From Flaccisagitta enflata (Eukaryota), in NCBI GenBank assembly GCA_965153355.1, contig OZ231126.1, positions 38,626,001 to 38,690,000 of the forward strand: a stretch of 64,000 nucleotides of DNA, written 5' to 3'. Below, in pieces: positions 39,301 to 45,300 of this stretch (its first letter is position 1; every line of letters starts with the position of its first letter). A program made the position numbers and the translations under genes. The notes beneath the pieces were generated by a model. That model did no database searches and was not told the DNA's origin. It saw only the letters and a list, made by a program, of their open reading frames with translations.

Positions 39301-42300
39301 CCAAATGGGAGATATTGTAGAGGTAAAAAATATATGACCCCCGTAAGGATGGGGATACCATCCGAGCTAAAAAAACCCCGAAGGGCCAGCACGGTATCCT
39401 ACGGAGACCATCATAAAAACATATGAATCGACATCCCTCTTGCCGAAAAGATGATGTTAATAGGTTTTCATAACTTTTCAGTCGCGTACACACGTCTCTA
39501 TAATTCTCTTTGAGTCTGATGGTCGGTTGATTAGTCTGTCATTCTGTAGCACCTCACTATTTTGGAGTTTATGGGCGGCTCCTGTATCAGTGCCCCTAAC
39601 CAACTGCTTGATAAGCCTTCTTAATCATTGCCCCCGCCTACTCGCAGTCCCAGACTCGACTTCGTAAGCCGTGTGATTGGCCTTGTTTACGTGAAAAGAA
39701 AACAACATTTTGCGCTTTTTATGCAAATCGTAATATTCCTTTCAGATTCGAAGCCGGAAATCATATTTGATGATTTTGAAGGAAAAAATATATTTTAAAG
39801 ATTTTTATTTCTCCCGCTGTTTTACGGAATCTCTCTTTAAAGATGTTTTGGATATAGATAATTGCCTATGATCAATGATCATATCGCTTGGAAATCATAA
39901 GATAGTTTTTTGAGCCGTTTTGTAAGTTAGTGTCCATCTGCCACGGCTTAATTTGCATTCACGTTCAATGAAAATACTTTACAACTAGAACTAGTACTAT
40001 ACTAGAAAGAAGATTGACGCCACTCGATTCAATTTTTATACGTACATCATTGACATGGGGGGGGGAAATGTTTCCAATTCAGAGACTTCATGGGGGAAAA
40101 CGATGGACAAATTGATGGACCTAGACAATGCAGCTGAAATTTTGTCTGAGATAACTCGGTTGCAAGAGATTGACGATAAGGTATGGAAACAGAACGAAAT
40201 GATGTGGGAAGTAACTCAATGATCATATCGAATGACAATTTGGAGCACCAACTTTGGATTGTGAGTCATAGTTACCCTCTAAGCCAAGCCAGGCCAATCA
40301 GGCCATGAAGCTGCTATTTTATATATACAGAATTTATTATATTTATTATATTATTTATTTATTATATACAGTTAAGTCCCGCTCCAACGGATTTCAGGGG
40401 ACCAAGGAATTTCATTTGTTATAGGCGGAATTCTGTTAAAGCTATAATATAAAATAGAATAAAATGGACTCAAGAAACCAAGAAATAGCATTTGTTATAG
40501 GCGGAATTCTGTTAAAAGCGGGTCCGTTGGAGCGGGGTAATTAGATAAAACGAGAGTTTCAATTCCAGGGTTTCCCATATCCCACTGTCAACACTTAAGG
40601 GCTAATTTGTCATTACATGAAGTAAATGTAAAAACTTGTTAGTTTACACTATTTTAACACATCTCCCATTCCACTAGAAGTGATAAGCGATCAAATATAT
40701 TGTTAAAAAAGAAAGACTCAAAACGTTGAATCAGCGCCATTCTCGCGTATTCGTCATGCAGGCAGGGGTGTAAATGATTGAGCGGCTTTGATTTTCTTTC
40801 CCACGACATGTCGCGTTGCATTACAAAATCTATGATTTTCTTCCCCCAAAGTAATAAAACAGTATATTTTAGGTTTAAGTAGTGTTAAATTGTGTTTTAG
40901 TAATCAAATGTTACCTTTTAGTACTACCAAAATTGTAAAGTCTTCAAAAATTTTCTTTTTTCTTTAATTCAAGCTTTAGATTTTTTCCCCATTTCCAAAC
41001 CCTTTGATTTTATACCCCCCTCACGGGGGGGGGGGGGATGCTCAACACGCCTGCATGCAGGTGATATCATGTTTTGCGGAATCTCTCTTCAAAGATGTTT
41101 TGGATATCGATAAACGCAGCATATGAAGTGGATGCCATTTATGGATGTGCAATCGTCGCCTTTAGCTGTCGAATCAAGCTGCGTTTGAAGGCCACAAATC
41201 CCATGACCGGCCGGACACTTTACCGGTTCTTCCGCCATCCATTCTCCCCATTTACGATTGTTAACTTGCTCTTCTACGTTTGGCCATTTAAGTTTGAGTC
41301 CTCCGGAGCACACGAAGTCCAGATATGCAGAAGCCACATCATCAGAAGCAGCATTGACGACATCTGAGGTAGAGCAGGGTAACTGGGTTAAAATACTCTT
41401 TTTCTTGAGTAAGGACAAAGTTTAGAGAAAATAACCTAATTCTTAAATAGCGGCCCAAAGGCAGTAAGTGGTCAGCGGTACCCGTGCCCTGCTTTAGTAT
41501 GTGATTTAAGTTGAGGGGGAGCAGGGCAGCGACCCCAAAAGGGACAAAATCCTGTAGAACACAGGGGGAATCTGTTCGTACGTCCGTACGTCTGTTCATT
41601 CGTCCCCCCCTGCCCCATCCTCAGGGCTTCATCTCCTTTGGGGCCTATTCTGCCCCAAATTTTGCTAAATAGCCCAAATCTAAGCAATATGGCCCAAATC
41701 AAAGCAAAATGGCCCAGATTCATGCAAAATGGCCTAAATCTTGCCAGAAAACCCCAATTCTGGCCTGGGGTTCTTCATTTTGGCCATTAAGACCCATATT
41801 GGTGCCTCCAATACCTGGATTCTGACAAGATTTGGGCCAATTTGTTTGGATTTGAGCCATTTTGCTTAGATTTGGGCCATATTGCTTGGATTTGGGCTAT
41901 TTAGCAGAATTTGGGTCAGAAAAGGCCCAAAAGGAGACATAGCCCTGAAGAAGGGGCAGGGGGGACAAATGGATGGACGGACAGATTCCCCCTGTGTTCT
42001 ACAGGACTTCGTCCCCTTCATTGCTGCTGCCCTGCTCCCCCTCAACTTAAAACACACACTACTCAAGCAGGGCACGGGTACCGCTGACCACTTACTGCCT
42101 TTTGGCTGCTATTTAAGGATTTTCTTACTATAAACAGCAGTTAACGTCATATCTAACTTGCATTACCTTAAATTATTCATCATTTATGTCAATGCATAAA
42201 ACATAGTTAAAAGAAATTCGTAGAAAAATATTTAGGACATGCAAAGAACATTTCAGCCTAGAATTTGTAAAAATCTAAGGGCATCCCAGCCTCAGAAAAA

Positions 42301-45300
42301 AGCTACTGGTCCTTAAATTAAAAAAAAAGAGTGTACGTCGTATGAGGAACACAGCCAGCAGCTGTTGCTGGTTTTCGATGGGGCAATCAAAAGACAAGCT
42401 TTATAGCCATTTCTAGTTGCATGGACACGACACTTTAACCCACTTTTTCGGTCAGTCGGCTGGTCGGTCAATCGGCCATCGCAATTCCTGCCCATTCGAC
42501 TTGGATGGCCGTGTATCCAGCCATATTAAAAAAGTAGCTTTAGAACAGATGCACGATGGGACCTAAAATGTGTGAACGAATCAATAAAGAATGTCAGCAC
42601 TTTTTTGTCGGTGGGACGAACTAGGTTGACCCGGTTTGTTTAACGATATAGCTAAAGTTACGGTATTCAGTTCAGTTTTCTTGACTCACTTATTTTCCCG
42701 GAGCCTTGGTGTTTTTCGGCTCTTAGCCTAGCTCCAACTATGAGGTGACCATTTGAGCAGTTTTGCCACTCTTTCCATTCTCCATGTTCGCCTACACTCG
42801 AGGTCACAGAAGGAGACTTGTCAAGTTTGTTGTTATCCAATGGCAATGAACCGCATTCCAATTCAATGCCATTTAGCGCAGAATCGTCTCCGTTTCCCTG
42901 AGGACTTTCAAACTTGATTCTTGCGCGCGTTGCATACGTCCCAAATGGACAAAGGTCAATGTTGCCCATTGAACCCCAATGAGTGTATCCGTCCAAGGCA
43001 ATTACAGGAATGACTTCTGAGCATAAGTTACAAAATAGGTTGTTTTATTAGAAGTTGCTGTGAAAAGCTTTCCGGTCATTTGGCCATTTTCGGCCATCAA
43101 AGCATTCATATTGTCATAGTTCATCCGTCTTCAGTTCATCAACTCTGAATACCAAAGAACACATGTAGCCCTATCGGGACTTCATCAATCAACTAGTGAC
43201 TTCTAGTTCTAGCCGTGCATGGCAATAGGCGTATTTGAGTAGATAGTATACCGACTACCTTCGTCTATCCGTTCATCAATGTGTACGGGGTCAAATCCTT
43301 TTGTAAAGATTCCAATATGATATGCCTCGTGGCACTAGCCTTGCCTTGAACTGTTTACTTTTCAATTTAGACAACCACTGGTAAATAGTAGCCTACCTTC
43401 AAACCGTTCAGGTCCTTCGTTGCACGTGGAGTTGACTGGTGAAGGTGTAAGGCATGGGATTTTCAGTTTGCCACGCCAATGGGAGGCTTTCATAGTTTTA
43501 ACAAGGCCATGTAGACCAACGATGCGTCCTCTATGAATGAACGTTTTTCATGAATGGATATTGTTTATCAATAAATGAAAGAATGAATGAGTGAATGAAT
43601 GAATTAATGAATGATTGAATGAAAGAATGAGTGAGTGGTACTGCTTTTTTGATGGAAGAGCCTTGGATTTTGTGATTTTAAGGTTTGCGTGATGGACAGA
43701 CCAACCGACTGACACAGCCTCATATAGAGATGCGAGGACGCATATAAAAAAGGTTCTGTCACCATGGCCATCGGTTTGGGTTAGAGTTAGAGCAAGAGTA
43801 TGGATGTGAAAGCGGTCAATTGGTCAATTTTAGTGCCGCTTCTGCTTTCGCCTCTATTTTATAGTTCCAATACTAATACCTAAACCTATCCCATCATCCA
43901 AATTGGAAGCGGTTAACAGCTTCCACTTCCCTGCTCAGAAGTCAAGCAAGATGTATAACAGGACTCACATAATTAGGCGGAAAAGTAAAATGATCAATAT
44001 AGATAGTAAAAATGCCCTCAGCATGATGGAATTTGACATGGAGATAGCTAAGACCTAGTATTTTAACGTAGCAAAGCGGGGTTGGCGACTTTCCTGCATG
44101 TTGGGCGAGATGGAGGGTGTTTCACCAAAAGTGAGGTGTCAGATTATTGCTGATTTTTACGGGAAAAATGTAACAAAGTGGAACCGTTTACCATTGGTCA
44201 TTTTAGGAAGATGGAATGCAAAAAAAAACGCCATTTATCGTGTAGTGCAGTTGGTTGATGCAGGAAAGTCAGTCACGCAAAAAGAAAGCCGCCTAATTTG
44301 ACAATAACTAAGGAATTGAAGGGAAATTTGGGCATCAACAAAATGAAGAGCGTGTCAATCTCGAATTTGGTGTCCTTTCACTTATCAGCATATTTACGTT
44401 CATCAGGGGATAGCCGTTTACTTTTTTGGGCATCTTTCGCATCATATTGATAAAGTGAGCATGAATTGGTGATATATATTGCCTGGATTGATTATAACTC
44501 CATTTTTGACGCCCTTTTCAACAAGCTAGCATCTCTTTCCGCCTAATTTTGTGAGACCTGTTAGTAAACAAGTGACGCGGGGTCACAATGTTGTTGTAGA
44601 GAGGTGGGCATGGGCGCACAACCCCCATCCAAAATCCTCCCCAAACGCACTCAGGCACAAAGACAATCACACATTGGCACTATCATAATTGCGCGTTTCG
44701 CACTTTTCAACTTGATCACCATGATGGACCAACGGACCAATGGACCAGCGGACGGACGGAAAAAGCTTCTTATAGAGTTGCATGCCCGTAACTAAAAAAG
44801 CAACGGTTGCGAGATTTTCATGGTATCTTCCTGAAGCCTAAACCTGTGGCCGCCTTTACCCAACATCTCCAATGGCATGCAATCAGTCTTATTCGCTGAA
44901 GAGAAAAAAAAGTTAAGCGATAATAAACAGAACAAGGAGTGATGAATAATCATGAGGAGATACTCGATACTCAATTTTGCACACCCTGTACCCTAAGTCT
45001 TTTATTTTTGTTCTTTCCAGTATTTAAAGTTAAGGCATCAACTTACTGAAAATACTGATCAGAGCAACAACAGCTGCCAGGAAGATGACGCAGATTATGA
45101 ATAAAAAAGTGGCCATTTTGCGCCACTTTGCGTCAGGGGCTTCAGGGGCTTCAGGGGTGTCGGGCAAATTGAGATGAGGCCTTGCTAGGTCGTCAACTGG
45201 TTCTTCATAAATTGGCTCAACGGTGCTGCTGATGACATTTTGGTTTCTACGGCTGCGGCTGTTGTTGGCAGTTTCCATGGCCGCTGCGCATGTCACTAAT

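Follow-up and report, generated by a model that had tools for sequence, protein, structure and literature searches.

The VOMI gene and its domain

The DNA analysed here is a stretch of 64,000 nucleotides from Flaccisagitta enflata (assembly GCA_965153355.1, contig OZ231126.1, positions 38,626,001 to 38,690,000 of the forward strand). We call this whole stretch the window, and all coordinates refer to it. The minus strand of the window holds a VMO1-family (VOMI) gene of four exons, with AG acceptors and GT donors throughout (Table 1). Its donors read, in order, GTAAGT, GTAAAG and GTGAGT, and every intron is in phase 1. The spliced model is 870 nt long with an open frame of 289 codons followed by TGA. 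We judge the chances to be about even that the gene encodes a lineage-specific member of the VMO1/VOMI family with a predicted internal signal anchor of transmembrane (TM) length after ~54 cytoplasmic residues, in place of a short cleavable signal peptide. An initial annotation of this DNA had proposed the exons and their phases, a PIYEEPV motif, a basic KWRK cluster, a hydrophobic helix and a full VMO1 domain, and all of these are present where it had placed them.

Exon 3 matches the Pfam VOMI family (PF03762) over positions 4-95 of 167 (E 7.6e-20, 72.1 bits) and exon 4 does so over 97-167 (E 7.7e-13, 49.3 bits), against a cut-off of 25 in both cases. Exons 3 and 4 together are a complete VOMI domain, far beyond chance. 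Because of its internal repeats, exon 3 matches chicken VMO-I (1vmo_A, E 6.9e-15) in three successive stretches. All eight family cysteines are aligned (Cys 112, 144, 176, 217, 248, 255, 280 and 281), and the model has extra ones at 63 in the helix, 83 in the linker and 270. There is one DD-containing motif per repeat, at residues 132-139, 205-212 and 267-275. The VOMI exons contain no stop and no frameshift, and this is an intact VMO1-family gene; its product would adopt a beta-prism fold, as far as the sequence alone can tell. Relatives of exon 3 number 1122 at E up to 0.001, and identity to fish and reptile VMO1-like proteins is ~35-41% over ~180 residues. In a word-based search of exon 3 against longer proteins, 1 of 121 candidates matched, a gharial VMO1-like protein with 38% identity.

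Before the VOMI domain begins, exon 3 offers no ATG in frame, so an upstream exon with endoplasmic reticulum targeting is needed. We scanned the minus strand from 43017 to 47700 for open frames that start with ATG, encode a hydrophobic core and have a phase-1 donor agreeing with GTAAGT in 5 or more of its 6 positions. Three candidates were returned: exon 1 read from Met1, exon 1 read from Met55, and a 22-codon piece at 46399-46333 that sits inside a dispersed repeat. Exon 1 is thus the only non-repeat candidate within 4.7 kb upstream, and its perfect GTAAGT donor is in the phase that exon 3 requires. An engrailed-like homeobox gene on the opposite strand begins within ~2.4 kb upstream of exon 1, which leaves little room for further VOMI exons. 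Exon 1 is very likely joined to exon 3 in one gene. Other upstream coding exons on the minus strand between 45300 and 47700 were considered and rejected; the open reading frames (ORFs) there are repeat or low-complexity sequence, and the three that were tested (45570-46079, 45520-45786 and 46408-46740) gave no Pfam family. The paralogue check proposed by the initial annotation found none in the window: tblastn with the model returned only the four exons, the remaining matches having E > 1. An Rfam search of the whole window gave 0 matches.

The hydrophobic helix and the N-terminal tail

The start ATG at 45278 is the first in-frame ATG, 8 codons past an in-frame TAA (45302-45300), and its context, gccATGg with G at -3 and +4, is strong. 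The helix that follows the tail has a 24-residue uncharged run (55-78) and a maximum of 3.26 in a 19-residue Kyte-Doolittle window (KD19). These values exceed those of 121 of the 122 N-terminal hydrophobic cores found among VOMI relatives, in which the median run is 12.5 and the 90th percentile 18; the only equal is P0058, itself TM-like. By length and hydrophobicity the helix is of TM grade. Charge is distributed unevenly around it, with three K/R in four residues on the N-side (KWRK) versus one in 15 on the C-side.

In both BLASTP and MAFFT alignments the helix falls on the signal peptides of canonical VMO1 proteins, whose Met1 pairs with Met55 of the model; P0170, for instance, aligns over its residues 1-196 with model residues 55-281. 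The helix stands at the position of the family signal peptide and, on these alignments, is positionally homologous to it. A 5' extension together with lengthening of the core is therefore a simpler account than exon shuffling. Most likely the ancestral VMO1 signal peptide became the anchor as the frame was extended at its 5' end and the hydrophobic core grew longer, and no foreign TM exon was captured. The initial annotation had called the protein exon-shuffled, but phase-1 introns alone are no proof of shuffling, and with the helix at the signal-peptide position that description is not supported. The type II membrane layout that it proposed keeps its parts, namely tail, basic cluster, TM-length helix, linker and full VOMI domain, all as predictions.

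If Met1 is used, the helix (55-77) would be recognised co-translationally and KWRK on its N-side would hold the N-terminus in the cytosol, following the positive-inside rule. The C-terminal VOMI domain would then be translocated and form the four family disulfides, the helix remaining uncleaved. As a type II membrane protein, it would display the domain ~12 residues from the bilayer, or 1 residue if exon 2 is skipped, since leaving out exon 2 preserves the reading frame. This putative exon would contribute a linker of 12 residues that includes an NKT sequon and Cys83. What had been described as a stalk is accordingly kept as a predicted linker, but one of only ~12 residues from a putative 36-nt exon. 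By analogy with chicken VMO1, the tethered domain could be a carbohydrate-binding module that acts as a surface lectin or in adhesion or microbe binding, with a specificity that altered motifs in repeats 2 and 3 may have changed.

The tail has no detectable relatives in Pfam, in the word-based search or among Atlas look-alikes. The word-based search with exon 1 matched 1 of 2 candidates, P0152, an unspliced ORF fragment. The best Atlas look-alikes of exon 1 scored 0.86, below the lead level of 0.9, and were generic bacterial 'transmembrane/hypothetical' clusters, so these were set aside. P0152 keeps the frame of exon 1; it is identical at 78 of 82 positions and departs from it by a single substitution and a three-codon deletion that preserves the frame. 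It lacks residues 39-41 (PDT), just upstream of a 9-nt repeat, and because of these three missing codons we conclude that the tail is polymorphic in length, yet in frame. The 54 open codons ahead of Met55 would be expected by chance in ~7% of cases ((61/64)^54), which is a weaker part of the observation.

Table 1. Features of the VOMI gene and its predicted product (window coordinates)
Feature	Position	Strand	Remarks
Exon 1	45047..45278	-	232 nt, ends in phase 1; start codon 45278-45276; donor GTAAGT at 45046
Predicted cytoplasmic tail, residues 1-54	45117..45278	-	hydrophilic; no Pfam family above cut-off
PIYEEPV, residues 22-28	45215-45195	-	sole tail Tyr is Tyr24
9-nt perfect tandem repeat, 2.8 copies	45133-45157	-	codes for PEAPEAP in the tail
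KWRK, residues 51-54	45128-45117	-	basic cluster directly before the helix
Hydrophobic helix, residues 55-77 (uncharged run 55-78)	45048..45116	-	opens with alternative start Met55
Putative exon 2	44860..44895	-	36 nt, phase 1 to phase 1; acceptor tttttttctcttcag, donor GTAAAG
Exon 3	42690..43016	-	327 nt; first half of VOMI (repeat 1 and part of repeat 2)
Exon 4	41089..41363	-	275 nt including stop TGA 41091-41089; second half of VOMI (by alignment, rest of repeat 2, repeat 3 and terminal CC)
Candidate polyadenylation signal ATTAAA	40963..40968	-	~120 nt past the stop; consensus match only, weak

Frequency of the layout among VOMI relatives

To place the layout in its family, we used 218 VOMI relatives: 1 from the word-based search, 149 from the exon 3 search (P0002 dropped) and 68 others, with P0152 and P0221, the model's own translation, excluded. 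The sample is biased, being composed of the best 150 of 1122 matches and word-sharing relatives of one crustacean-like query. A TM-grade stretch, defined as KD19 of at least 2.5 and a run of at least 20, occurs in nine of the 218. In four of these nine it lies at residue 1-9, like a long signal sequence (P0143, P0150, P0161 and P0204), and in one, P0111, we read it as a bacterial pilin-type leader. Credible anchors are left in four relatives (~2%), P0217, P0058, P0011 and P0019. No N-terminal hydrophobic segment is present in 81 of 150 and 27 of 68 entries, suggesting that many of them are fragments.

The membrane-anchored VOMI layout is therefore rare, but not unique. Uniqueness fails, since P0217 is already arranged as tail, TM, S/T stalk and VOMI, and P0058 as TM, stalk and VOMI. 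Anchoring has probably arisen more than once, because P0217 is only 27% identical to the model in the VOMI domain. The existence of these independent anchored proteins also indicates that the layout is viable.

P0020, a protein of 268 aa with two PQYE in a 90-residue N-terminal extension, was considered as a homologue of the tail and rejected, as it has no TM segment and its relatives are ordinary decapod proteins. It is a decapod-type VMO1, 72% identical to P0153 over the domain and 58-65% identical to P0154-P0162, which comprise crab, lobster, shrimp and crayfish VMO1-like proteins and one further entry; these decapod proteins have an ordinary length of 209-218 aa. The extension contains an S/T-rich stretch and no hydrophobic segment, and P0020 may be a mis-assembled transcript or another N-terminal variant.

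Anchored or secreted

Several observations weigh against an anchored, sugar-binding product. The alternative start Met55 (45116-45114) also has a strong context, aaaATGg with A at -3 and G at +4, and its alignment with the canonical Met1 means that initiation there would give an ordinary secreted VMO1. An out-of-frame ATG lies upstream at 45291-45289. Small residues at 70-72 (VVA) would, on our reading of the sequence, permit cleavage by signal peptidase. Over-extended N-termini ahead of an internal Met and signal peptide occur in other VOMI proteins (P0048, P0165, P0176, P0199 and P0206). The codon-usage score of the tail, 8.5, falls between non-coding and coding windows: 17.4% of 1674 non-coding open windows (mean 0.3, standard deviation 9.3) reach it, and 13.9% of 237 coding windows (mean 19.2, standard deviation 8.3) are below it. 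The only near-identical database entries are P0152 and P0002, the latter 93% identical to exon 3 by phmmer, and both are unspliced ORF fragments that read into introns. The databases searched yielded neither a transcript or protein in spliced form nor an annotated orthologue. Apart from anchoring, exon 2 itself is less certain: in a 2030-nt interval, a crude filter (open, phase 1 to 1, YAG acceptor, pyrimidines of 75% or more, donor of at least 4/6) leaves three mini-exon candidates, of which it has the best polypyrimidine tract (0.85). In addition, the motifs of repeat 2 (SDDVASAY) and repeat 3 (GDDCTSING) depart from the DDT[AS]xN consensus of 12 aligned relatives, and sugar binding may for this reason differ or be lost.

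The match of Met55 to the canonical start, its context, the over-extended relatives, the VVA site and a codon-usage score that does not establish the tail as coding would all fit an ordinary secreted VMO1. Such a protein would be made from Met55, by a transcription start inside exon 1 or by leaky scanning, or else by cleavage of the helix, which would then serve as a long signal peptide. The product would be a soluble VMO1-like protein of ~210-235 residues, and the upstream 54 codons would be 5' untranslated region or belong to a minor isoform. However, a core longer than in all but one of the 122 relatives is not what this account predicts, and a product begun at Met55 would have no basic n-region, though KWRK adjoins it directly upstream in frame. 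The first ATG is in strong context and its frame is intact in P0152, and 54 open codons are not readily had by chance. We consider an ordinary secreted protein possible but doubtful, and the same grade applies to a secreted form that would be produced from a downstream transcription start in place of the anchored one.

The initial annotation went on to suggest a signalling function. In its fullest form, this would be a VMO1 beta-prism pattern-recognition or adhesion receptor that binds glycans, in which the signal peptide has become a signal anchor and phosphorylated Tyr24 docks an SH2 adaptor for tyrosine-based signalling or endocytosis. The predicted type II layout is compatible with it, as are three PxxP motifs in the tail and a sole tyrosine with two acidic residues and a proline after it (YEEP, a YxxP motif). 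SH2 domains of the Crk/Nck/Abl type prefer YxxP, and those of the Src type YEE. Against this, a pattern scan of the 54 residues found no immunoreceptor tyrosine-based inhibitory, switch or activation motif (ITIM, ITSM, ITAM), hemITAM, Yxx[LI], YxxPhi, NPxY, acidic dileucine, PPxY, YxN or YxxM. Apart from PxxP, the tail matches only YxxP/YEE[P], and of 20,000 shuffled tails 12% contain YxxP and 3.2% contain Y[DE][DE]. The tail is without detectable relatives, no tail motif common to the other anchored VOMI proteins was seen, and every objection to the Met1 start holds here as well. The signalling claim is not sustained, and a receptor of this kind seems to us improbable. If it were true, it would be convergent with receptors of the Dectin-1/CLEC-2 type, with a beta-prism in place of the C-type lectin domain.

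Equally improbable is an error in the gene model, with exon 1 belonging to another transcript or to none and the VOMI first exon lying elsewhere, or with the whole an unexpressed relic: no spliced transcript appears among the database matches, an AG at 45297-45296 after a pyrimidine-rich stretch would let exon 1 be internal, and inverted copies of a dispersed repeat flank exons 1 and 2, but the perfect, correctly phased donor of exon 1, the want of another non-repeat first exon in 4.7 kb, the closeness of the engrailed-like gene and the uninterrupted VOMI exons with 8/8 family cysteines all argue otherwise.

If the protein is anchored, it would be a clean case of 5' extension converting a signal peptide into a signal anchor. 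It would also mean that the VMO1 lectin-like fold, known from small soluble proteins, is used at the cell surface. The reach of such a finding is limited, as the domain is an ordinary one, similar layouts are already in databases (P0217, P0058) and no long-standing open question is touched. It is common for a secreted domain to have anchored variants in particular lineages. We found no paper on a membrane-anchored VMO1 in a literature search that covers few subscription journals.

Surroundings of the gene

The engrailed-like homeobox gene (47710-49659, plus strand) is arranged head-to-head with the VOMI gene. An intron divides its homeodomain between ORFs at 47710-47934 (PF00046 positions 1-45) and 48291-48500 (positions 42-57), and a P/S/H-rich ORF follows at 48613-49659. 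The best solved relatives of the homeodomain are engrailed structures (6m3d_C, E 7.8e-21). Further along the plus strand, a 512-codon open frame at 54285-55823 encodes two SH3 domains (residues ~63-117 and ~177-222), for which the nearest solved domains are those of sorting nexin-9, PSTPIP1, CIN85/CD2AP and Grb2.

Repeats are found in and around the VOMI gene. Intron 3 contains nested inverted repeats at 41438-42121 that make a foldback of ~680 nt, with arms of 62, 98 and 145 nt that are 83-94% complementary and include tandem repeats of 20 nt; its appearance is that of a foldback insertion or one of the miniature inverted-repeat transposable element (MITE) type. The dispersed repeat that flanks exons 1 and 2 is ~230 nt long, with inverted copies at 44567-44798 and 45497-45712 (pairs I4, I10 and I13, 73-90% complementary). 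Further ORF motifs, seemingly of this element, lie at 46319-46537, 50419-50707 and 53528-53745. Microsatellites lie at 43570-43634, 45362-45430, 45807-45866 and 46912-46998; intron 2 contains (AATG)n, the complement of which lies shortly before exon 1, and (AG)30 and (GA)43 are found further upstream.

Elsewhere in the window, there is an ankyrin-repeat open frame at 6722-7339 (minus strand) and a reverse-transcriptase fragment at 36190-36867 (plus strand; RVT_1, E 4.6e-09). A 513-codon frame at 30299-31840 (plus strand), rich in P, Q, H and S and with a long terminal (RE)n run, matched no Pfam family. Either a low-complexity exon of some regulatory protein or an open frame arising by chance in repeats could account for it.

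Comparison with known systems

Chicken VMO-I (PDB 1VMO) resembles the model in its complete VOMI domain, which comprises three internal repeats and eight cysteines, and in having a hydrophobic segment at the same position. Among the relatives compared here, canonical proteins have ~180-220 residues and a short signal peptide at the N-terminus. They are described as soluble proteins of egg, tear or mucus, and the chicken protein as an 18-kDa beta-prism protein with four disulfides, weak antibacterial activity and an affinity for heparin and GlcNAc oligomers (PMC9363672). The same source calls the main physiological role of VMO1 uncertain. The model differs from these canonical proteins in its 24-residue hydrophobic run, which follows 54 residues, and in the altered DDT-type motifs of repeats 2 and 3.

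Invertebrate VOMI proteins have been linked to immunity through crustacean VMO-I-like proteins of haemocytes and the lymphoid organ. Eight VMO-I transcripts are given as up-regulated in shrimp challenged with Vibrio (PMC8388422), and a VMO-I-like gene is named as marking a haemocyte cluster in crayfish (PMC9902875). The crustacean VMO1-like matches to the model have 209-218 residues, N-terminal signal-type sequences and 33-36% identity. In C. elegans, a table lists 19 VOMI proteins, 13 of them with a signal peptide (PMC3534327), and a rotifer study discusses VOMI domains as possible carbohydrate-recognition modules (PMC8878817).

The closest layout is that of P0217 from the rotifer Adineta steineri, which, like the model, has a hydrophilic N-terminus (~34 residues), a basic cluster (KKK), a helix (22 residues, KD19 3.52), a stalk and one VOMI domain (156-320). 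The two differ in that their VOMI domains diverge as described above, the S/T-rich stalk of P0217 has ~100 residues against ~12 in the model, and the tails are unrelated, that of P0217 having no Tyr motif. Its anchored layout is probably of independent origin. Among the other anchored relatives, P0058 has a helix at 1-24 with no tail, an S/T/G stalk and VOMI at 93-254; P0011, of 1593 aa, has a 165-residue N-terminal region, a helix at 163-186 and two VOMI stretches; and P0019 is of type I, with a C-terminal TM segment and tail.

Type II C-type lectin receptors such as Dectin-1, CLEC-2, DC-SIGN and ASGPR have an N-terminal cytoplasmic tail, a signal anchor, a neck and a C-terminal carbohydrate-recognition fold. 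The order predicted for the model, with its tail, helix 55-77 and C-terminal domain, is the same, and the resemblance is one of layout only. Only VOMI scored above the Pfam cut-off in the three coding pieces, with no C-type lectin domain, and none of the tail motifs of these receptors is present. The neck would be very short, a ~12-residue linker from the putative 36-nt exon with one unpaired cysteine, Cys83. Where those receptors present a C-type lectin domain, the anchored product of this gene would present a beta-prism.

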